Shown here: positions 36,357 through 64,000 of the stretch, one piece after another
Numbering within the stretch: the stretch's first letter is position 1
How the letters are laid out: each line of letters opens with the position of its first letter
Assembly (NCBI GenBank): GCA_904502235.1
Contig: CAJGDP010000006.1
Coordinates: forward strand, 2,955 to 66,954
Reading direction: 5' to 3'
DNA: 64,000 nucleotides
Source: an uncultured Bacteroidaceae bacterium
GTDB taxonomy: Bacteria; Bacteroidota; Bacteroidia; Bacteroidales; Bacteroidaceae
Position numbers and translations under genes: made by a program
Notes under the pieces: model-generated
What the model was told of the DNA's origin: nothing
Databases searched by the model: none
Seen by the model: the letters and a program-made list of their open reading frames with translations, nothing else

Positions 36357-38579
36357 TTAAAGTTCTATGCTTATATGTCCTATTGCATTTATACCTGCCT
36401 GTGCGGCATATCCGGCGTAGTTGTAGCGTTGGCGCTGTCCGTTTTCGTCGGTGTAATATCCGCTTCCGGCATAACCGTTGTTCTCGTACTCTTCGTTGAA
36501 CAGGTTATATATTGTTGCGCCCACAGTGATGTTTTTCACACCTTTCAATTTGAATGAGTAAGCCAATCGCAGGTTCGTTACAAAATAGGCATCAAGGATA
36601 TGTTCCTCGATTCCGTAATTGCTCATATACTGTTTGCTCACATATTGGGATTGCAATGCGGCTTCCAAACCTTTCCATTCATAAGAAAAGCTGTTGTTTA
36701 CAATAATGTCGGGCGAAAAGGCAAGCGGAGTGTTGTCGTGGTGGATTTCCCACTTTTCATAAGTGTAGTCGTCGTACAGAACCTCGGTGAAATCCTTTAT
36801 CCTGTTACGGCTGAATGTTGCATTGGCATTCCAACGGAATCCGCATTTGAGTGCAATTCCTGCGGTGAGCTCAATTCCTGCACGATAGCTTTTGGGAATG
36901 TTGGCTGTAAGCGGTTCGCCAATCTCGTTCAGTTCGCCGGTGAGAACCAATTGGTTCTTGTAGTCCATGAAATAGAGATTTGCTCCGGCATTGAATATAC
37001 CTTTAGACAGGTTGTAGCCTATTTCGTAGTCGATAAGTCTTTCTGCTTTGGGGCGTTCGTTGAGCTTGCCGTCGGTGTAGTTGTTGCGTGTGGGCTCTTT
37101 GTGCGCAACGCTTGCCGATGCAAAGAGTCTGTTGCTGTTGTCTATCTGCCACGAAATTCCTGCCTTGGGATTTAAGAAGTCGAACTTTTCATCTATCTCC
37201 AGGTTTTGCAGGGCATCTGTTGCGTCGTTCCATTTGTCGTTGTTGCCGTCTATGGTGTAGCGTATATGGCGATATTGCAGGTCGGCATATATGTTCAGAC
37301 ATTCCATTGCCTTGTAGTCGGCTTTCAGGTATATGTTCATGTCGTTCTTGCCACCGTTGTTGCGGTAATACTCATGGTCGGGCACAAGGTTACCAATGTA
37401 ATCCTTTACCCAAAGGACCTGCCCGAAATGTCTTCCGAAGTATCTGTTTGCACCGCCACCCAATATGGTGTGAATGCGGCTGTTCTTATATGACAACGAG
37501 AATACTGCTCCGCCAAAATGGTTGTCCATGGCTTTTTTGCGTATAAGGTCGCTCTTCTTTACATTGTTGCCGTCGAGAGTGAATGGCTGCAGGGCATATT
37601 CTTTCAGTTTGCGTCCGGTTTTGTATTCCTGATAATATCCGTCGCCCTTGGTGTAGTGCAAGCCTATGTTCATGTTCAGGGTGTTGCTGAAACTATGGTC
37701 GAACAGCAGCTGGTAATTCTGTTGAAAATAATTGTCGGTCTGTCCGTCATAGTAGTGTGCCTTGCCTGTTTCGTCGGTGAACATATATCCGCAACTGTTA
37801 TAACGTCTGCCATACAGTTCCATTTCCTCTTTGCTTGCATAGTTCCAGGCGTGGTATGTCTCCTCCTTGCCGGTGAATGTTATGAAGCGTAGGGTGGTGT
37901 TGTCGGCATAGTATGCACCTTGCAGGTAGTACGACTGCAGTCCGGCTCTTGCGCGGTCTATGTAACCGTCGCTTCCAATGTTCGAAAATCTTAAATCAAG
38001 GCTCCAATGGTCGGCAAGTATACCGGTTCCGGCAGCAACGCTCTCCTTGTGTGTCATGAATGAACCGAACGAGAAACCGGCTTTTGCATACGGAAGCGTA
38101 TTGAAAGTGCTTGTGCGCAGGTTCATGCTTGCGCCGAAGGCACCGGCGCCGTTAGTGGATGTTCCTGCACCGCGCTGTATCTGAATATCCTTTACCGATG
38201 AGGCTATGTCAGGCAGATTTACCCAAAAGACATTGTGGCTTTCGGCATCGTTCACCGGAATATCGTTTATGGTAACGTTTATGCGAGTGCCGTCGGTGCC
38301 ACGAATACGAAGGCTTGTGTAGCCGATGCCTGTTCCTGCATCACTTGTTGCAATGGCACTTGGAGTTGTCGATACAAGATAAGGCAGGTCGATGCCCGTG
38401 TTCGACTTTGACAACTCCTTTTGACCTATTTCGCTGTATGCCACAGGAGTGGTCTTCGTGGCTCTTACAGACAGGATTTCAACTTCCTGCAATGCCTGCA
38501 GGTTCTCTTGTTCCTGTGCGTGCAGCACAGGAAATGCCGTTGCCATAATCAGGCAAGCGACAATTGATTTTCTTTTCAT
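36357..38579 (-). CDS. TonB-dependent outer-membrane receptor (thiamine-regulated)
   Basis: Signal peptide, plug domain (TSLRIRGTDGTRINVTINDIPVND), and a ~600-aa barrel. It is the first gene downstream of a TPP riboswitch. Confidence 0.9.
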   Translation of the reverse strand: MKRKSIVACLIMATAFPVLHAQEQENLQALQEVEILSVRATKTTPVAYSEIGQKELSKSNTGIDLPYLVSTTPSAIATSDAGTGIGYTSLRIRGTDGTRINVTINDIPVNDAESHNVFWVNLPDIASSVKDIQIQRGAGTSTNGAGAFGASMNLRTSTFNTLPYAKAGFSFGSFMTHKESVAAGTGILADHWSLDLRFSNIGSDGYIDRARAGLQSYYLQGAYYADNTTLRFITFTGKEETYHAWNYASKEEMELYGRRYNSCGYMFTDETGKAHYYDGQTDNYFQQNYQLLFDHSFSNTLNMNIGLHYTKGDGYYQEYKTGRKLKEYALQPFTLDGNNVKKSDLIRKKAMDNHFGGAVFSLSYKNSRIHTILGGGANRYFGRHFGQVLWVKDYIGNLVPDHEYYRNNGGKNDMNIYLKADYKAMECLNIYADLQYRHIRYTIDGNNDKWNDATDALQNLEIDEKFDFLNPKAGISWQIDNSNRLFASASVAHKEPTRNNYTDGKLNERPKAERLIDYEIGYNLSKGIFNAGANLYFMDYKNQLVLTGELNEIGEPLTANIPKSYRAGIELTAGIALKCGFRWNANATFSRNRIKDFTEVLYDDYTYEKWEIHHDNTPLAFSPDIIVNNSFSYEWKGLEAALQSQYVSKQYMSNYGIEEHILDAYFVTNLRLAYSFKLKGVKNITVGATIYNLFNEEYENNGYAGSGYYTDENGQRQRYNYAGYAAQAGINAIGHISIEL

Positions 38580-38690
38580 TTTAATTCCAATTTGTGGAGC
38601 CTAATGCAAAAAATAAATCCACCATGCTCCGTTGTTAAACAGAAAATGGGGATTTTTCCTGTACGCCTACATATATTGGAATGTGTATGT

Positions 38691-38770
38691 AAACTTTTTC
38701 CTACGCCGGCATTACCCGGATCAGGTTCTTGGGTATGATCTCAGCCCATGTATTAAGGCACCCCGTTTTT
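38691..38770 (-). promoter_or_regulatory. TPP (THI-box) riboswitch aptamer
   Basis: The minus strand reads aaaaacGGGGUGCcuuaauacaugGGCUGAGAucauACCCaagAACCUGAUCCGGGUAAUGCCGGCGUAGGaaaaaguuu. All conserved TPP-aptamer blocks are present (GGGGUGC, CUGAGA, ACCC, AACCUGAUC.GG.UAAUGCC.GCGUAGG). Confidence 0.9.
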
Positions 38771-38781
38771 GAAATCTGTTG

Positions 38782-57588: not shown

Positions 57589-57630
57589 AGGGAAAATCCT
57601 TCGGTTTTGTAGGGATTTTCCCTGTTTTTT
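57589..57630 (+). terminator. Rho-independent terminator of the ilv operon
   Basis: agggaaaatcc (57589-57599) pairs with ggattttccct (57613-57623), followed by gtttttt. Confidence 0.8.
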
Positions 57631-57645
57631 GCTTTTCTTTGTAAC

Positions 57646-57696: not shown

Positions 57697-58788
57697 ATGA
57701 AAAGGTTGTTCTTATTGTTGCTTATGGCATTTCCGTTCGTCGCATCGGCACAGCACGACGATATCTATTTTGTTCCTAAAAAGGGCACAAAAGCTGTTGT
57801 CGTGAAGTACGTTGATGAATATGACGAATACGATGAATATGATGATGAATGGTACGACGAGGATGAGAATGTCTGCTATACAAACGATCTGTATGATTTA
57901 TATGACGAGGATTATCGTTATTCCAGAAGAATCGTACGTTTCCGCAATCCGCACAGCAATGTAAGCAGTCCGCTATATTGGGACCTGATGTATGGTTGCG
58001 GTGTGAACGACTGGATGGTCTACGACGACGGATATTACCTAAACATATATCCTACATATACCAATCCGTTGTATTATTGCTCGGGAACATCGTACAATTA
58101 TTGGAGATGGAATACATGGCATTACCCTTACAATTATCTGAATTATGGTCATTGGGGATATCACCATCACTATCCTTCGTATCATTGGCATGGATATTAC
58201 CCTCATCATATGCATGGCGGTTATCATCCTTCCTATATCGCAGGCAGTTCGTGGCGTCCAGCACACAAGATACACAAGGGCATTCCTGTGAATGGTGCGG
58301 GTAAAGGACACAATATTGCAGGAAGACCTGCCGGCAACCGTCACACTGTACACACAACAGACCGTGTGGGCACGAACAGACCTACAGACAGAGTGAGTGC
58401 TGCAAACCGACGTAATGATGCGCGTACTGTCAACGTGGTACGTGGCGAGAACCCGCAGCGTAACCAGCAGGCCCGTCGTCCGTCTGCACAATCTTCAACA
58501 AACAGAAGCGGAAATGGCAAAAGCACGGGAACACAGGTGCGTACAAATAGCGGAAGCAGGAGTAAATCATCTTCTTCAAGCGGCAGAAGTTCTTACCGTA
58601 GCAGAAGTTCCTCTTCTTCGGGTGAGTACAACCGTCCGAGCAGTACAAGCGTTTCGCGTGAGCGCAACTCTTCATCGGGCAGCTTCAGAAGCGGCAGCTC
58701 ATATTCCGGTTACGGAGGCGGTTCCGGTTCAAGAAGCGGTTCCGGCGGTTCCTCTTCCGGCTCAAGAGGCGGTGCTTCAAGACGCTGA
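57697..58788 (+). CDS. Secreted low-complexity protein: acidic DEY block, Tyr/His/Trp block, Arg/Ser/Gly tail
   Basis: Signal peptide MKRLFLLLLMAFPFVASAQ, then DEYDEYDEYDDEWYDEDE..., then ...GHWGYHHHYPSYHWHGYYPHHMHGGYHPSY, then a ~160-aa R/S/G/N-rich tail ending ...GSGGSSSGSRGGASRR. Confidence 0.7.
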   Translation: MKRLFLLLLMAFPFVASAQHDDIYFVPKKGTKAVVVKYVDEYDEYDEYDDEWYDEDENVCYTNDLYDLYDEDYRYSRRIVRFRNPHSNVSSPLYWDLMYGCGVNDWMVYDDGYYLNIYPTYTNPLYYCSGTSYNYWRWNTWHYPYNYLNYGHWGYHHHYPSYHWHGYYPHHMHGGYHPSYIAGSSWRPAHKIHKGIPVNGAGKGHNIAGRPAGNRHTVHTTDRVGTNRPTDRVSAANRRNDARTVNVVRGENPQRNQQARRPSAQSSTNRSGNGKSTGTQVRTNSGSRSKSSSSSGRSSYRSRSSSSSGEYNRPSSTSVSRERNSSSGSFRSGSSYSGYGGGSGSRSGSGGSSSGSRGGASRR

Positions 58789-58814
58789 CAATAATTAGGG
58801 CATAATCTATTACT

Positions 58815-60326
58815 ATGAAAAACACAATACTTATGAAACGGGCAATATATATGCTTTTTGTGATTCTGCCGTTTGCGGTAAATTCACAGAATATGTATAA
58901 CATTACTGATCTGTTCGATGACGCACCTTCGGGTACGGCGCGATTCATGTCAATGGGCGGTTCTATGTCGGCACTTGGCGGAGACTTGTCGGTTATGGGT
59001 ACAAACCCGGCAGGAACGGCTGTATATCGCTCAAACGATATAAATCTGACAGGTATTTTCGATATTGTGAACAACAGTGCCAAATATGAAAAGAGTGTTT
59101 CTCCATCGGGTTATAATGGTGCGGCTCTTGGTAATCTAGGCTTTGTAGTCGCTTGCGAAATTGAGGATTCCTACTTGCGCTTCCTGAACTTTGGTGTAAA
59201 CTACCGCAGAAAGAACAATTTCCGTAACAACTTTGCGATGGAGGGTCCGTCGGGTGCTTTTTCGCAGCAATATGTGTTTGACTATCTGTATAGCCTGAAT
59301 CCATTCGATCCCACAAAGATAAATTCGGGAATGTATAGCGGATTTGACTACAACTGGCTTGCATTGCTTGCGCATAATACCTATGTGTTTGATGAAGAGG
59401 GTTACTTCTATACTCCTGCCAAGCTTGGCTATAGCAGTGTGGTGCGCGGTGGCTTGAATATGTGCGATTTCAATCTCTCTGCCAATATTGATGACAGGGT
59501 GTATATAGGTGCATCTTTGGGATATTACAATCTTGACTATTCGCGCAGTTCATATTATTACGAGGATGATGAATTCGACAAGAGAATATATTCCTTGAAT
59601 AATGAATACAGAATCAGCGGTGCAGGATACGATTTCAAATTGGGCTTGATAGTACGTCCGTTCGAGTATTCGCCTTTCAAGATTTCCGCGTTTGCGCATA
59701 CTCCTGTAATGTATAGATTCATGGATAGATCTTCGGCATATATGACAGGGCCGGAAGGTCATGTCTTTGATACGGCACATGAGGATTGTTACGGTGATGA
59801 TGTGTATGTAACCTATCGTCTGAATACTCCATGGAAATTCGGTGCCGGTGCTTCATATACATTCGGCAGATATCTTGCTTTGAATGCCGAGTATGAATAC
59901 AGCAATGTTGCAGGAACGTCCTTTACTAATGGCGAAGGTATTGACATTGCGCAGAACGAGGAGATTTCGTACAATCTTAAGGCACAGCATAAGGTGCGTA
60001 TCGGTGCAGAGGTGCCTTTGAAGAAATTCGCGTTACGTGCAGGATATAACTATATATCTTCACCGTTTACTGCCGATGCTTACAAATGTATGAGCAATGC
60101 TACTGTAGTTGATACATCAACCGAGTATATGAACAAGTATTCAAAGAATGTCTTTACATTCGGTCTGGGATATACGAGCAAACTCCTCTACATTGATTTT
60201 GCATATATGTGCCAGAAGCAGAAAAGCGATTTCTATCCTTTCTATGACGAGGATTATGTGAATCCGTCGGCTGCGGTGTCAACAACCAGTCATTCAATTG
60301 TGGCTGCCGTGGGTATACGTTTCTGA
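58815..60326 (+). CDS. Outer-membrane beta-barrel, FadL/PorV-like
   Basis: Signal peptide. The N-terminal hatch-like motif is GTARFMSMGGSMSALGGDLSVMGTNPAGTAVY. The terminal strand is aromatic (...VAAVGIRF). It starts 26 nt after the low-complexity gene. An alternative ATG lies at 58833. Confidence 0.65.
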   Translation: MKNTILMKRAIYMLFVILPFAVNSQNMYNITDLFDDAPSGTARFMSMGGSMSALGGDLSVMGTNPAGTAVYRSNDINLTGIFDIVNNSAKYEKSVSPSGYNGAALGNLGFVVACEIEDSYLRFLNFGVNYRRKNNFRNNFAMEGPSGAFSQQYVFDYLYSLNPFDPTKINSGMYSGFDYNWLALLAHNTYVFDEEGYFYTPAKLGYSSVVRGGLNMCDFNLSANIDDRVYIGASLGYYNLDYSRSSYYYEDDEFDKRIYSLNNEYRISGAGYDFKLGLIVRPFEYSPFKISAFAHTPVMYRFMDRSSAYMTGPEGHVFDTAHEDCYGDDVYVTYRLNTPWKFGAGASYTFGRYLALNAEYEYSNVAGTSFTNGEGIDIAQNEEISYNLKAQHKVRIGAEVPLKKFALRAGYNYISSPFTADAYKCMSNATVVDTSTEYMNKYSKNVFTFGLGYTSKLLYIDFAYMCQKQKSDFYPFYDEDYVNPSAAVSTTSHSIVAAVGIRF

Positions 60327-60342: not shown

Positions 60343-61401
60343 TCATTTCCTGCGCAGGAAGTTGAAGCCGGCATAGATTTTGAGATATCCGAATCCGTTC
60401 TGTACGGAGAGCGAAGGCTGGGTGTATGAATAGGTATGTGAAACCAACGATGCGCCTGCGAAGTATCTGCCGTTGTTATATACCAGCGCCAGACGCGAGA
60501 TAAGGTCGAAGTTGATACTTGATACAAACTCCTTGCTGTTGCTTATATTGAGCTTCAGCGAGGTGTTTTTGTAACTTATGGCTGGTGATACCGAAATGTT
60601 GGCAAGGAAATTCTTTGCAAATACCCAGTTGTAACTGTATCCCAGATTTATGCTGATATCCCTATAGTCAACACACTTGAACTGCAGTTCGCTTTTCATC
60701 AGTTTCTCTATTGCCGGGTCTATTCTTGTGTGGTCGAAATCGAATTTCTGCTCATTGTAACTTAATCCCAGGATTAGCGAACCTGCGTTTCGGCGCTGGT
60801 TGGTTGATTGGCTGAATGCCGCAGGGAACGAGAATTTCTTGTAGTTGAAAACGTAGAACAGGTTCGCACCCATCTGAGACGTGCTCAGTCCGTCGAAATC
60901 CCTCTTGTAGTTTACAAGTGGCAAATCGTTCTCAATGAATCCTTGCAGGTTTCGTATCTTGAAGCCGTCGCTGCGTTTGCGGTAGAAGAGTTCCAGGCCC
61001 AGTCTTGAACAGTATAGGTTAAGGTCCATGTCGAATTCCGGCTGGCTCTTGTTTAATGCGAAACTGTATCCGAAGAAGAGCCAACGCCATCCGAAGTGCA
61101 GACCAATCTTGTCGTTCGATGACGGGGCAATGGTTATGCTCTGTGATTTGTCTTTGGTGGAGAAACGGTAGTAGTCGTAACCGTGTGTGTATTGTGGCAT
61201 CACGGTAAAGTTGTATCTGTTCGGGGCAACATACAGTGTATCCTGTTGCAGTTGTCTGTCCACAAAGTTCACTACCTTCCAGAAGAAGTTCTCTTTTCTT
61301 GCGCTCTGTGATAGGGAAACTGCAGGAATACAGAGCATCAACAGGAGAAAAAGAACCGCTCTTCTCCCTTTTTGTGTGTTATTATGTATACCCCTTGTCA
61401 T
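60343..61401 (-). CDS. Outer-membrane beta-barrel protein, DUF4421-like (tentative)
   Basis: I take the ATG at 61401: MTRGIHNNTQKGRRAVLFLLLMLCIPAVSLSQ. It is beta-rich with the end ...KIYAGFNFLRRK. The family call is from memory only. Confidence 0.45.
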   Translation of the reverse strand: MTRGIHNNTQKGRRAVLFLLLMLCIPAVSLSQSARKENFFWKVVNFVDRQLQQDTLYVAPNRYNFTVMPQYTHGYDYYRFSTKDKSQSITIAPSSNDKIGLHFGWRWLFFGYSFALNKSQPEFDMDLNLYCSRLGLELFYRKRSDGFKIRNLQGFIENDLPLVNYKRDFDGLSTSQMGANLFYVFNYKKFSFPAAFSQSTNQRRNAGSLILGLSYNEQKFDFDHTRIDPAIEKLMKSELQFKCVDYRDISINLGYSYNWVFAKNFLANISVSPAISYKNTSLKLNISNSKEFVSSINFDLISRLALVYNNGRYFAGASLVSHTYSYTQPSLSVQNGFGYLKIYAGFNFLRRK

Positions 61402-61405
61402 GGAA

Positions 61406-62377
61406 TTACAATATTTTGCCCAGTACCTTGTCCAGAACCCAGTTGGTGGGTGTTGCACTTATGCTGTCGCACTTGCAGTTGCCCTTGCCTTGCAGATGTT
61501 CAACAATGTTTCTTATCAGGGGCAGTTGCACATATGGCGGGTTGGGTATATTGAAATGTTTTGTTCCTTCAGCACTGCGCAACTCAATGGGCTCGAATGT
61601 GAATACCGAGAATTTTATGCTTCCTTTGCTTCCGAAGATTTCGATATGGTCTTCTTTTGACGATTCGTCCGATACAAAGCACCACGAACCTGAACCGGGT
61701 ATGCCTGAATCGAATTTGAAACATGCGCTAACTGTATCTTCCGCCTTATATAGTCCTCCACGGTTGGTGGCATATCCTTCGGCATGCAGTATGCATCCGA
61801 ACATCTCCTGCAATAAATCTATCTGGTGGGGTGCAAGGTCGTAGAAATATCCTCCTCCTGCAATATCGGGCATAACGCGCCATGGAAGGTTCTCGCGATT
61901 GTAGTCGAGGTCGCGCGGAGGCACTGCAAAACGTATCTGCACGTTGAGTACGTTGCCTATCTGGGGAAGCAGTTCCTTAACCTTTATAAAATAGGGGAGA
62001 TAACGTCGGTAGTATGCCACAAAACATGGTACGCCTGTCTCTCGCGATATGCGGTTTATACGGGTGCAGTCTTCGTAGCTTGCGGCAAGCGGTTTCTCTA
62101 CATACACGGGTTTGCCGGCTTTCATTGCCATAATGGCGTATGTGGCATGCGATGATGGTGGGGTGGCGATGTATACGGCATTTACTCCTGGGTCGTCGAT
62201 AAGTGCCTGCGCATCGGTGTACCAGTGTGTTATGTTATGGCGTTTTGCGTAATCCTTGGTTCTCTCCTTGTCGCGTCCCATTACGGCAACCACTTCAGAG
62301 CCTTTTACCAATGGAAATGCCGGACCGCTCTTTTTCTCGGTGGCCTCGCCACAACCGATGAATCCCCATTTTATCAT
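61406..62377 (-). CDS. Gfo/Idh/MocA-family NAD(P)-dependent oxidoreductase
   Basis: N-terminal Rossmann motif IKWGFIGCGEATEKK and the family-typical EKPLA motif (VYVEKPLAAS). Confidence 0.88.
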   Translation of the reverse strand: MIKWGFIGCGEATEKKSGPAFPLVKGSEVVAVMGRDKERTKDYAKRHNITHWYTDAQALIDDPGVNAVYIATPPSSHATYAIMAMKAGKPVYVEKPLAASYEDCTRINRISRETGVPCFVAYYRRYLPYFIKVKELLPQIGNVLNVQIRFAVPPRDLDYNRENLPWRVMPDIAGGGYFYDLAPHQIDLLQEMFGCILHAEGYATNRGGLYKAEDTVSACFKFDSGIPGSGSWCFVSDESSKEDHIEIFGSKGSIKFSVFTFEPIELRSAEGTKHFNIPNPPYVQLPLIRNIVEHLQGKGNCKCDSISATPTNWVLDKVLGKIL

Positions 62378-62392: not shown

Positions 62393-64000
62393 TTAGTTAT
62401 AGAAATTCCACGAAATGCCAAAACAGAATATTGCCGGGCTTATAGGGTAGTGCGGCGCGAGGAAATATTCCCTGTTGCCGAGACCTTTGTTCGCATGGTA
62501 GTATTTGACATAGAATCGTGCCTGTTTCAGCAGGAAGTTCGCATATACACTCGCTACAGGATAGTTGCCTATTGCAATCTTGTTTTCCGGATTCTGCTGT
62601 ACATACTGTCCCAATGCAGGTGAATAGTCGGGCGCATAGTATTTTGTGAAATATCTTGCGTCTGCTCCTATCTCCGTATTCAACACCTTTGCAATCCTGA
62701 ATTTAAGGAATATGTTGGCATATGCGTTTATCATTGGCAATGGCAGAATGTCCTGATTACTGCTGTGCTGATAGGTAACCTGGGTGTTCAGATTGAATAT
62801 TCCGAACTTGAAGTCCTGCTTGAGCGTTGCCGAGAATATCTGTATGTTGGCATTGTCCTGTCGGACATTCAGACGCCAAAGGTATCTGCCGACAGCTCCG
62901 GTTGGCAATGATTCGTTGGCTATGTATGTGTAGTTCTTTACATTCTCTAATCCGGCGTTGAGTCTTGTTCCCCACGAAGGTATCTCAAATGAGGCTTCGA
63001 TGCGTGTCTTGAACTCTTTCTTGAGTTGGTTGTCCCACCAGAAATGCTCGGAATGATAGTGGCGGTAATAGAACGACGGGCGGTTGTTCTTTATGAATGC
63101 ATTTGCTTTCAGCTGCATATCTCTGTTCCATAGTCTGAAGTGGAACTGTGCCTCTCCGTCAAAGGAGAATGCTCCGAACTCTTCGCCTATAAGCGATGCC
63201 TCACCGTTGACGTTGTATTTCAGATGTCTGCCATGTGTGCTTGATATTGAACCTCCCACCTTAAGAATGTGCTCGTTGTATTTTTTCTTGAATTCCTTGC
63301 TTTCGAGAGTAGTATCGGGCAGGGTGTATCTTTCGTATGTGTGTTCTGCAAAAGCTGTGATATCGGCGAATGCATATTTGCTGAATCCTTCGCACAGGGA
63401 GAATGCAATACGGTTCTTGACCTTAAGACTTGTGGTGAAGTCGGTTGAATCGTATGGCAGGAAGTTGTCGGCATAATAGTTGTACATCTGCTGATGGTTT
63501 ATGAAATCATGCTCGTGATATTTTACATCGGCAACATGTGTGATTCTTGCCACGCGTACGAATTCATTTTCCACGGAATCTCTTACAACGCTGTCTGCGT
63601 CGGCCACCATCTTTTCGCGATAGAATCCCATGTTGTAACCCTGTGTAAAGAAAAGGTCGTATGTGGTGTTCCTGTTCCATGTTGAATAAAGGTATACCGG
63701 AATGTCCGACGGGGTGAAGTTGCTGTTCATACCATCGGTCTCTTCGGGACGTGTGATGTAACGGTCGTCTGTTATACCTCCATTCTCTGCCTGTTTCATG
63801 CGGTAGTGCGATACAAGCAGATTGTAATCATAGTGGTCGTTCTTGTAATATGAGAACAGCGAGAAATTTGTCAGCGATGTGGCCTGTTTGTCGTATCGTC
63901 CGCGTGCGTAAAGGTAGTCGATAAGGAAACCTATTCCGAAGTGTTTGCCGGCATTTGTAGAGAAATATGCTCTCACGCGGTCGTCGCCAGTCTGTCTGTT
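62393..64000 (-). CDS. Large outer-membrane beta-barrel (putative-porin-like); N-terminus lies beyond the window
   Basis: The frame stays open to position 64000. The sequence is Tyr/Asn/Phe-rich with alternating beta character, and the C-terminus is aromatic (...FGISWNFYN). Confidence 0.5.
   Translation of the reverse strand, partial: NRQTGDDRVRAYFSTNAGKHFGIGFLIDYLYARGRYDKQATSLTNFSLFSYYKNDHYDYNLLVSHYRMKQAENGGITDDRYITRPEETDGMNSNFTPSDIPVYLYSTWNRNTTYDLFFTQGYNMGFYREKMVADADSVVRDSVENEFVRVARITHVADVKYHEHDFINHQQMYNYYADNFLPYDSTDFTTSLKVKNRIAFSLCEGFSKYAFADITAFAEHTYERYTLPDTTLESKEFKKKYNEHILKVGGSISSTHGRHLKYNVNGEASLIGEEFGAFSFDGEAQFHFRLWNRDMQLKANAFIKNNRPSFYYRHYHSEHFWWDNQLKKEFKTRIEASFEIPSWGTRLNAGLENVKNYTYIANESLPTGAVGRYLWRLNVRQDNANIQIFSATLKQDFKFGIFNLNTQVTYQHSSNQDILPLPMINAYANIFLKFRIAKVLNTEIGADARYFTKYYAPDYSPALGQYVQQNPENKIAIGNYPVASVYANFLLKQARFYVKYYHANKGLGNREYFLAPHYPISPAIFCFGISWNFYN

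Follow-up and report, generated by a model that had tools for sequence, protein, structure and literature searches.

Why would a bacterium encode a secreted protein of extreme composition directly upstream of an outer-membrane barrel? We addressed this question for a 363-amino-acid (aa) open reading frame (ORF) in a 64,000-nucleotide (nt) stretch, hereafter the window, of contig CAJGDP010000006.1 from an uncultured Bacteroidaceae bacterium (assembly GCA_904502235.1). The answer that we favor, tentatively and with somewhat less than even confidence, is that this protein (the target) is a dedicated partner subunit of the FadL-type barrel encoded downstream, and that the two genes make up a two-gene outer-membrane module of gut Bacteroidaceae, the same one as BF638R_1644-1645 / BF9343_1562-1563 of Bacteroides fragilis. 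The barrel of that module is one of few Bacteroides outer-membrane proteins with a demonstrated ecological role, as the receptor of a strain-killing toxin and as a gut-colonization factor; in published work it figures as a FadL-like transporter that stands alone. Coordinates of all features are collected in Table 1.

An exported, mostly disordered protein with conserved elements

A sequence-only reading of the window had described a secreted protein of three compositional blocks, and a recount agreed with it on the 363-aa ORF, its translation, and the blocks. Residues 39-75 are 30% D and 19% E (49% D+E) and 24% Y, with a net charge of -17; residues 118-180 are 27% Y, 17% H, and 8% W; and the tail (residues 209-363) is 28% S, 17% R, and 15% G, has a net charge of +22, and ends in GSGGSSSGSRGGASRR (...SRGGASRR). 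The 30-mer GHWGYHHHYPSYHWHGYYPHHMHGGYHPSY holds the 10 His and 7 Tyr that had been counted, along with 2 Trp (Y/W/F/H = 19/30). Among the 45 window ORFs of at least 200 aa, the target ranks first for lowest 30-aa entropy (1.71 vs. a median of 3.14), for aromatic/His density (20/30 vs. a median of 7), and for most negative 30-aa charge (-16 vs. -6).

The AlphaFold2 model of the target, built on a 92-sequence alignment, had a mean predicted local distance difference test (pLDDT) score of 49, with 259 of 363 residues below 50 and about 70% called disordered. Strands were modeled at residues 79-82, 106-110, and 114-119; pLDDT was 70-82 over residues 101-130 and 32-45 in the aromatic block. Scans of the target against Pfam and NCBIfam gave no match, and a scan of 25 N-terminal halves gave no consistent weak family. 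A profile search of solved structures returned only compositional matches to eukaryotic RS-rich proteins (e.g., CWF21, mL77), and Foldseek with the low-confidence target model found nothing below E=5. The earlier remark that nothing in the protein looks like a globular enzyme is in line with the low pLDDT. Taken as predictions, these results support a protein that is exported through Sec and signal peptidase I, is non-enzymatic, and is largely non-globular.

The signal peptide ends at an Ala-Gln junction. Bacteroidetes follow a Q-rule, under which a Gln exposed at the cleavage site is converted to pyroglutamate (PMC5837995, PMC10653852), and the N-terminal Gln of the mature target is expected to become pyroglutamate because the invariant Ala-Gln junction fits this rule. 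The target has no lipobox: residues 1-59 contain no Cys (Cys occurs only at 60, 101, and 128), and the junction itself is Ala-Gln. Neither Pfam nor NCBIfam matched the C-terminal domain of type IX secretion substrates (an Ig-like beta-sandwich of 70-100 aa), and the last 170 residues are predicted to be disordered and strandless. The functions that had been proposed for the blocks, namely metal or haem binding, Tyr cross-linking, coacervation, and polyanion binding, are putative, with composition as their basis.

The target belongs to a large family. Our main search returned 252 homologues at E<=1e-3 (340-530 aa), none of which had a Pfam domain or an informative name. A profile of the first 130 residues, which is free of low-complexity sequence, was searched against 1.84 billion representatives and found 1,239 clusters at E<=1e-3 and 307 at <=1e-10; in all of the 150 best matches listed, the match lay at or near the protein N terminus. 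Members are publicly named "hypothetical protein," including the entries of model strains, and once "Vitellogenin II" (P0526 in UniRef), a name that seems to be an artefact produced by the composition of the Ser-rich tail. For the B. fragilis protein (the cluster of P0421), many of the database entries end at about 200-219 aa and are marked partial. Assemblies evidently break in the repetitive W/G and Ser/Arg coding region, and public annotation therefore counts too few members of the family and gives them wrong sizes.

Conservation was assessed in alignments of 25 and 92 members, and motifs and composition were surveyed in 120 members. The three-block layout that had been read from the window is kept across the family, with the acidic, aromatic/His, and Ser/Arg/Gly blocks holding composition and not sequence. 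Interspersed with these blocks are four short, strongly conserved elements: the A-Q junction with DDIYFVPKK, a ~55-aa mini beta-domain (the core), YNRPSSTSVSR, and the terminal RR. D22, Y24, and P27, like Q19, are invariant in the 92 sequences (window residues 17-27 read SAQHDDIYFVP), and the Ala-Gln junction together with the motif DD[ILMV]Y[FY]xP is found in 119 of 120 members as well as in the window protein. The family consensus of the core is DDYxYSxRIxRFRxP...LYWDLxYG...NDWxVYDDGY...IYPT, in which Y75, R78, and F82 are invariant (92 sequences); window residues 72-121 carry this motif. The window protein likewise has the aromatic block and the basic tail with Y-x-R-P-S-S-T and a C-terminal RR.

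The blocks between these elements vary more. Every family member examined has at least 15 W+Y+F among 80 residues of the aromatic block. A His cluster is common in the family but not universal: the 80-aa block contains 13 His in the window protein, with a family median of 7 and a minimum of 0, three or fewer in 11% of members, and HH in 79%. Family tails have median contents of 75% S/G/N/T/R, 17% K/R, and 3% D/E, and nearly all of the 120 members end in SRR, GRR, RGR, or ARR (the B. fragilis protein in ...SSRGRR). At the position of the acidic block, the Bacteroides/Phocaeicola branch has about 60 better-conserved residues (TVVVxDxKGNxRDVDEYNRR...NDTLYIEEK...GEWVNGF); because the DEY repeats of the window are encoded by a short DNA tandem repeat, of 9 bp in 3.7 copies, we infer that they arose by slippage expansion of the VDEYNRR motif. 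Some members, P0038 and P0043 among them, have tails with near-perfect tandem repeats whose units are 15-17 aa long (e.g., NAGNPRREQSARTTA x4 and GEQRRQQPTRTAVNGN x5-6), and tail length therefore evolves by repeat expansion; the window tail has only a small repeat, of 18 bp in 2.3 copies.

In four syntenic relatives, proteins flanking the pair are 93-98% identical to those of the window, and the target and barrel are 41-49% and 56-59% identical, respectively. The flanking DNA is 80-84% identical, so these relatives are different species. The low identity of the target is concentrated in the blocks that conserve only composition and is thus as expected for disordered sequence. A reading of the protein as "hypervariable" or under diversifying selection was withdrawn, since weak constraint on disordered sequence suffices.

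Linkage to a FadL-type barrel and orthology with Bacteroides fragilis

As had been noted from the letters, the barrel gene begins 26 nt past the target stop; no terminator lies between the two genes. We found a barrel homologue directly downstream on the same strand in 94 of the 94 loci first examined, and a wider motif-based scan found the two genes paired in 152 loci (136 unique pairs), so that the proposed link to the barrel gene holds well beyond the window. The pair occurs in Phocaeicola, Bacteroides, Mediterranea, Caecibacteroides, and other Bacteroidaceae, one subgroup alone accounting for 297 matching stretches in a one-genome-per-species collection, and its other neighbors vary. Strict pairing amid changing neighbors identifies the pair as a self-contained two-gene module.

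The AlphaFold2 model of the barrel (pLDDT 89.8; predicted template modeling score 0.85) has 14 strands and an N-terminal hatch with a G-x-x-NPA-type motif (GTARFMSMGGSMSALGGDLSVMGTNPAG). Modeled strand 3 is interrupted at residues 136-137, as a kink would be, judging from the strand list. The best solved Foldseek matches of the barrel model were BamG in three Bacteroidota BAM complexes (9hiv_F, 9n2d_B, 9hjm_F), then FadL and TodX (E values of 1e-17 to 1e-15 for the best matches, and 1e-17 to 1e-13 over the three proteins). No family model matched the window barrel above threshold. PF03349 (FadL/TodX) did not match the window barrel at E<=1 and scored 23.4 bits against a cut-off of 29.7 for the B. 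fragilis orthologue; some barrel relatives have a precomputed match. Because the barrel falls below the Pfam gathering threshold, its FadL/TodX membership rests on the fold and not on a sequence model. We rejected an identity with BamG (NF053685; 33.2 bits vs. a cut-off of 250, and 13% identity in the structural alignment) and with PorV/PorQ (NF033709; 23.3 bits vs. a cut-off of 90). We also rejected a hatch supplied in trans by the N-terminal peptide of the partner, as the barrel has a hatch motif of its own.

The faces of the barrel were assigned by topology read from the predicted model. On this assignment, the extracellular face would have a net charge of -20 in the window and a mean of -19.7 (-31 to -12) over 58 relatives, and the periplasmic turns would be few and near neutral (+1.8). 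The last 150 residues of the partner tails have a mean net charge of +20.6 (+12 to +27).

A homologous pair has been encountered in B. fragilis, where the MACPF toxin BSAP-1 (BF638R_1646) targets the outer-membrane barrel BF9343_1563 / HMPREF1080_01556 and BSAP-1 producers carry a resistant barrel orthologue, BF638R_1645 (Roelofs et al., mBio 2016, PMC4999547). The gene upstream, BF638R_1644 / HMPREF1080_01555, encodes a protein with a site for signal peptidase I, and a strain-variable region takes in the 3' part of the gene (PMC4999547). The B. fragilis barrel is surface-exposed and FadL-like, with an extracellular domain (PMC4999547, PMC12853789). In the literature, the target-family gene is mentioned in no paper besides PMC4999547, and there only as the upstream gene.

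We established the correspondence through published cloning primers. The BF9343_1563 primer ...TCT TCA AGG GGT AGA AGA TGA encodes SSRGRR-stop, which is the C terminus of this family. The primer string retrieved a B. hominis locus with a 439-aa family member adjoining prmA, and a metagenome scan with the B. hominis protein then found human-gut loci with the published primer sites of both allele types. A scan from a record titled "B. cellulolyticus" yielded only chicken-gut Phocaeicola-like loci and no B. fragilis. The barrel of that record (NZ_JAOQJJ010000011.1, Bacteroides cellulolyticus Sanger_22; loci L068 / L095) shares 92-96% identity with barrels from genomes of chicken-gut Phocaeicola and B. 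caecigallinarum, and the species label of the record may be wrong.

The 638R-type locus L126 encodes, in this order, a family member (440 aa), a barrel (527 aa), and a MACPF protein (372 aa); its barrel and MACPF genes measure 1,584 bp and 1,119 bp, the published lengths of BF638R_1645 and BSAP-1, respectively. The window barrel is 36% identical to the L126 barrel over 503 of 527 aa (E=1e-85), and the window target aligns with the L126 upstream protein at E=3e-24 (about 33% identity, in the N-terminal motif and core only). Primer sites, gene order, and alignments therefore make the window pair the orthologue of BF638R_1644-1645 / BF9343_1562-1563.

The two pairs share their architecture. Like the target, BF638R_1644 / HMPREF1080_01555 has an A-Q signal peptide, DDLYFVP, a DDYEYAxRIIRFRNPR...LYWD core, a W/Y/G/H block, a tail with STYTRPSST, and a final RR, and it lies directly upstream of a FadL-type barrel; it differs in having about 60 extra branch-specific residues where the window protein has its DEY acidic repeats. 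The B. fragilis barrels (B1R / OmpS, BF9343_1563; OmpR, BF638R_1645) resemble the window barrel in their FadL fold with hatch, their extended extracellular part, and their upstream partner gene. BF638R_1645 differs in having a MACPF toxin gene next to it, whereas we found no such gene beside the window pair. In L115, a B. fragilis-type locus, the gene after the barrel, on the same strand, encodes a 525-aa predicted lipoprotein without a Pfam family, and another locus (L065) has a 417-aa homologue in the same position. This strain-variable insertion sits exactly where 638R-type strains carry BSAP-1, and it could be another toxin or an accessory gene.

Tail, toxin, and the role of the partner

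The B. fragilis alleles link the tail to the barrel. The two partner alleles are 100% identical over residues 1-245, which include the N-terminal motif, core, and aromatic block, and about 50% identical in the tail, where a single island, TTRTDASSSRRSTYTRPSSTRSSSSY, is kept between both; it corresponds to the conserved tail island of the family (Table 1). A strain-variable region of heterogeneity has been described for these alleles (PMC4999547). With allele divergence confined to the tail and matching the barrel allele, the tail has been exchanged together with the barrel allele.

The toxin may offer a second link. BSAP-1 binds an acidic extracellular groove of its receptor through a 38-aa Arg-rich C-terminal domain without acidic residues (Borgini et al., PMC12853789). 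This domain, SSKGGAVRNNSRGHNTSSYGNSTRVIGANGNRSTYRRP, has the peptides GAVR (GAVRxNS), TSSY, SSYGNS, RVIG, and RSTY (RSTYxRP) in common with the sensitive-type tail; in all, seven 4-mers and one 6-mer are shared (shuffle mean 0.98, p=0.0002). When compared with 204 natural family tails (mean of 1.08 shared 4-mers, maximum of 6), the sensitive-type tail ranks first with its 7. The resistant-type tail shares 2 4-mers with the domain, which is no excess (p about 0.3). Like the partner tails, the BSAP-1 domain is short, disordered, and Arg/Ser/Asn/Gly-rich and has no acidic residues; unlike them, it is part of a lipoprotein MACPF toxin. We regard the resemblance of the basic toxin C terminus to the sensitive-type tail (empirical p about 0.005) as a lead, not proof. 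Among the loci scanned, no second MACPF gene was found beside a pair in which the comparison could be repeated.

Taken together, the conserved elements and the toxin-receptor neighbor favor a dedicated partner of the barrel over a free matrix protein. A partner subunit might work as follows. The pair, with no terminator between its genes, is probably co-transcribed. The protein would be exported by Sec and cut by signal peptidase I between Ala18 and Gln19, and the new N-terminal Gln would cyclize to pyroglutamate, as the A-Q junction and the Q-rule suggest. DDIYFVPKK and the beta-domain (residues 72-128), the only parts holding sequence and fold, would then dock the protein to its own barrel. 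The remainder would be a flexible arm, consisting of an acidic spacer, an aromatic/His/Gly segment, and a polybasic tail of about +20 with YNRPSSTS and the terminal RR. More speculatively, and as the weakest step of this scheme, the basic tail would engage the extracellular face of the barrel, which is strongly acidic (about -20), and the tail would be what the toxin imitates; in B. fragilis, this face contains the acidic groove bound by the Arg-rich domain of BSAP-1. The role of the module would be a surface function needed in the gut and not in rich medium. Such a requirement, for competitive gut colonization and not for rich-medium growth, has been published for the B. fragilis barrel only.

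A bolder version of this scheme is, in our estimate, unlikely but not negligible. In it, an anchorless, disordered Sec substrate is displayed on the surface through or alongside a FadL barrel, BSAP-1 finds its target by imitating the tail, and tail and barrel are matched, exchangeable allele cassettes that set toxin susceptibility and, possibly, allele-specific self-recognition among gut Bacteroidaceae.

Several parts of the scheme have known counterparts. In BamG, a FadL-family 14-strand barrel, a groove at the surface accommodates the N-terminal tail of BamH (PMC12611786). As proposed for the window pair, the barrel there is a docking platform for an extended peptide, and BamG is also the best structural match of the window barrel; the window partner differs from BamH in not being a lipoprotein and in being almost wholly disordered. 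FadL-family barrels also dock other proteins in type IX secretion (PorV with its cargo and PorQ with PorZ), and the window pair is unlike these systems in that its partner has no type IX C-terminal domain. In Escherichia coli, RcsF is threaded through OmpA, OmpC, and OmpF, a disordered positive segment passing through the barrel lumen in BAM-dependent assembly. Unlike the target, RcsF is a lipoprotein with a folded signaling domain, its porin barrels are not FadL-type, and there is no sequence relationship. Histidine-rich squid-beak proteins and Hpn-type proteins are His/Tyr/Gly-rich and disordered and bind metals or phase-separate; they resemble the target in the composition of the aromatic/His block only, with no homology. 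FadL-type docking barrels are thus already known in Bacteroidota (BamG), but no conserved and almost fully disordered partner with this architecture is known.

A number of observations weigh against the partner scheme. When B. uniformis or B. thetaiotaomicron expresses the B. fragilis barrel alone, the barrel assembles, is exposed at the surface, and works as a toxin receptor (PMC4999547, PMC12853789), so the cognate partner is not required for barrel biogenesis; the heterologous hosts may supply a partner homologue of their own. The target has neither a lipid anchor nor a type IX C-terminal domain, and the main difficulty is by what path the tail of a Sec substrate without an anchor would get across the outer membrane; to our knowledge, a plugged FadL barrel is not a conduit for polypeptides. 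Chance recombination could account for the allele breakpoint that tail and barrel share in B. fragilis. The signal for mimicry is a modest one: a Smith-Waterman alignment of the BSAP-1 domain with the sensitive-type tail scored 57 with a p of only 0.02, and one unrelated natural tail shares six 4-mers with the domain. Domain and tail show no similarity at the DNA level, the shared peptides being written in different codons; if the resemblance is real, it would therefore reflect protein-level mimicry and not recent capture. Finally, across the 136 pairs, tail charge correlated with the charge of the extracellular face (rho -0.37) no more strongly than with that of the periplasmic turns used as a control (rho +0.38). 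Acidic extracellular loops are, moreover, common in outer-membrane proteins.

Alternatively, the protein may stay in the periplasm, the default site for a signal-peptidase-I substrate without lipobox, type IX domain, or beta-barrel. As a periplasmic accessory or tether, it would dock with its N-terminal elements at the periplasmic side of the barrel and bind peptidoglycan or anionic phospholipids with its tail, acting as an anchor, positioner, or holdase; the strict operon linkage and the long, disordered, basic tail fit such a role. However, the few and nearly neutral periplasmic turns present no obvious docking surface, and the barrel assembles and acts as a receptor without its cognate partner in heterologous hosts. 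A periplasmic role would also leave unexplained that, in B. fragilis, the exchange along with the barrel allele is confined to the tail, and that the tail has an allele-specific likeness to the extracellular-binding domain of the toxin. We consider this alternative unlikely but by no means negligible.

A second alternative, close to the view of the sequence-only reading, makes the protein a two-partner-like cargo: the N terminus would be a signal for the cognate barrel, and the disordered rest would go to the surface, vesicles, or medium as a self-associating, polyanion- or metal-binding matrix or adhesion protein. A conserved N-terminal signal with a variable passenger does resemble two-partner secretion substrates, the oppositely charged and aromatic blocks are conserved in composition, HH runs are frequent, and the tails expand by tandem duplication like those of many surface proteins. 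Yet FadL-family barrels have a plugged lumen and no known part in protein translocation, their known roles with proteins being in docking, and His is not universal in the family, its count in the block falling as low as zero. This makes an exported cargo quite unlikely.

It is very unlikely that the target is an independent gene, functionally unrelated to the barrel, in an old and stable neighborhood. Such a reading would accommodate the fact that the barrel is a functional toxin receptor alone and that the upstream partner gene alone gives no BSAP-1 sensitivity (PMC4999547), but same-strand adjacency in every locus examined, while other neighbors change, is hard to reconcile with a lack of functional coupling, as is the short intergenic gap without a terminator. 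Lastly, long open alternative frames often occur in low-complexity coding sequence, here one of 133 aa (58397-58798), but a spurious or decaying ORF, or a real gene in that frame, is already refuted: hundreds of full-length homologues have the same motifs and the same C terminus, and in the four syntenic relatives the target frame stays open as far as its terminal RR whereas 3-6 stops interrupt the alternative frame, so that neither the frame decay nor the conserved alternative frame named by the sequence-only reading as its possible refutation is seen.

Returning to the preferred reading of the target as a barrel partner, its interest lies in the barrel. In hundreds of species of Bacteroidaceae, the barrel gene always comes with a gene for the conserved disordered partner, which makes the two-protein module, and not the lone barrel, the object to study. 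The finding matters because a known toxin receptor and colonization factor is thereby redefined as a module of two proteins, and because a testable hypothesis is gained for the native ligand of the receptor. That ligand, the shape of the toxin's binding domain, and the effect of the partner on toxin sensitivity become testable questions, for which a B. fragilis system exists (strains 9343 and 638R, purified BSAP-1, and a HaloTag probe of its C-terminal domain, HaloTag-CTD). If the tail is exposed at the surface, this would add a new way in which a protein without a lipid can be displayed on Bacteroidota cells.

Genomic surroundings of the pair

The pair of the window follows an ilv operon, whose genes were named from their ORF translations and from 93-98% identity in relatives. 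The sequence-only reading had given the target its own -7-like box and terminator context. The terminator context stood, as a hairpin and T-run follow ilvC; as for the box, no exact Bacteroidetes -7 box (TAnnTTTG) was found upstream of the target ATG, and the only candidate has one mismatch.

Table 1. Features of the target gene, its product, and the surrounding window
Feature	Position	Strand	Remarks
TPP riboswitch	38679-38775	-	56.6 bits vs. gathering cut-off of 54.3; only Rfam match in the window; just upstream of a 740-aa ORF, 36357..38579 (-)
Terminator-like hairpin and T-run	57609..57635	+	stem 57609-57625, then TTTTTGCTTT; ends the ilvD-ilvB-ilvN-ilvC operon
Candidate -7 box TTTCTTTG	about 57634-57641	+	one mismatch to TAnnTTTG; about 56 nt 5' of the ATG; weak evidence
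Target gene	57697..58788	+	ATG start; 363-aa exported, mostly disordered protein; orthologue of B. fragilis BF638R_1644 / HMPREF1080_01555
Signal peptide MKRLFLLLLMAFPFVASA, followed by Q (residues 1-18)	57697..57750	+	cleavage between Ala18 and Gln19; A18 at least 90% conserved, Q19 invariant (92 sequences)
Mature N-terminal motif Q-x-DD-I-Y-F-V-P-K-K (residues 19-30)	57751..57786	+	75-86% identity to relatives
Acidic D/E/Y block (residues 39-71)	57811..57909	+	composition-only conservation; 21-24% identity; family median 25% D/E
DNA tandem repeat, 9 bp x 3.7	57813-57845	+	encodes DEY repeats
Conserved core DEDYRYSRRIVRFRNP...LYWDLMYG...NDWMVYDDGYYLNIYPTYTNP (residues 72-128)	57910..58080	+	only confidently folded part; 63-70% identity
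Aromatic/His/Gly low-complexity block (residues 129-190)	58081..58266	+	39-51% identity; family median 50% Y/W/F/H
Basic Ser/Arg/Gly/Asn disordered tail (residues 191-363)	58267..58785	+	28-38% identity (residues 191-305)
Tail island GEYNRPSSTSVSRER (YNRPSSTSVSR motif; residues 309-323)	58621..58665	+	69-79% identity; motif in 107/120 members
DNA repeat, 18 bp x 2.3 (GSGSRS)	58704-58745	+	within the tail coding sequence
C-terminal Arg-Arg and stop	58780..58788	+	family signature; R362 at least 90% conserved
Partner barrel gene	58815..60326	+	503 aa (database start 58833, giving 497 aa); FadL-fold 14-strand outer-membrane barrel; BF9343_1563 / BF638R_1645 orthologue
DUF4421 outer-membrane protein gene	60343-61458	-	E=3e-85; converges on the barrel gene, 16 nt between stops
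Porin_10 outer-membrane protein gene	62393-63976	-	E=4e-159

The position after the ilv operon is that of the window clade, the module having moved between contexts intact. In Bacteroides and Phocaeicola, the pair often adjoins prmA, divergently (L005, L011, L013, L105, and others), and in several Phocaeicola loci it precedes a small 143-aa gene and a tricorn-like protease.

Of the loci examined, 25 have a DUF4421 homologue after the barrel. This neighbor, too, is divergent in relatives, at 61-66% identity vs. 95-97% for the adjoining oxidoreductase. With its listed GTG start (61458), the DUF4421 ORF shares 53 nt (61406-61458) with the 3' end of the oxidoreductase-like gene (323 aa; 61406..62377), and the true start is probably an internal ATG (MTRGIHNN...) ahead of a typical signal peptide.

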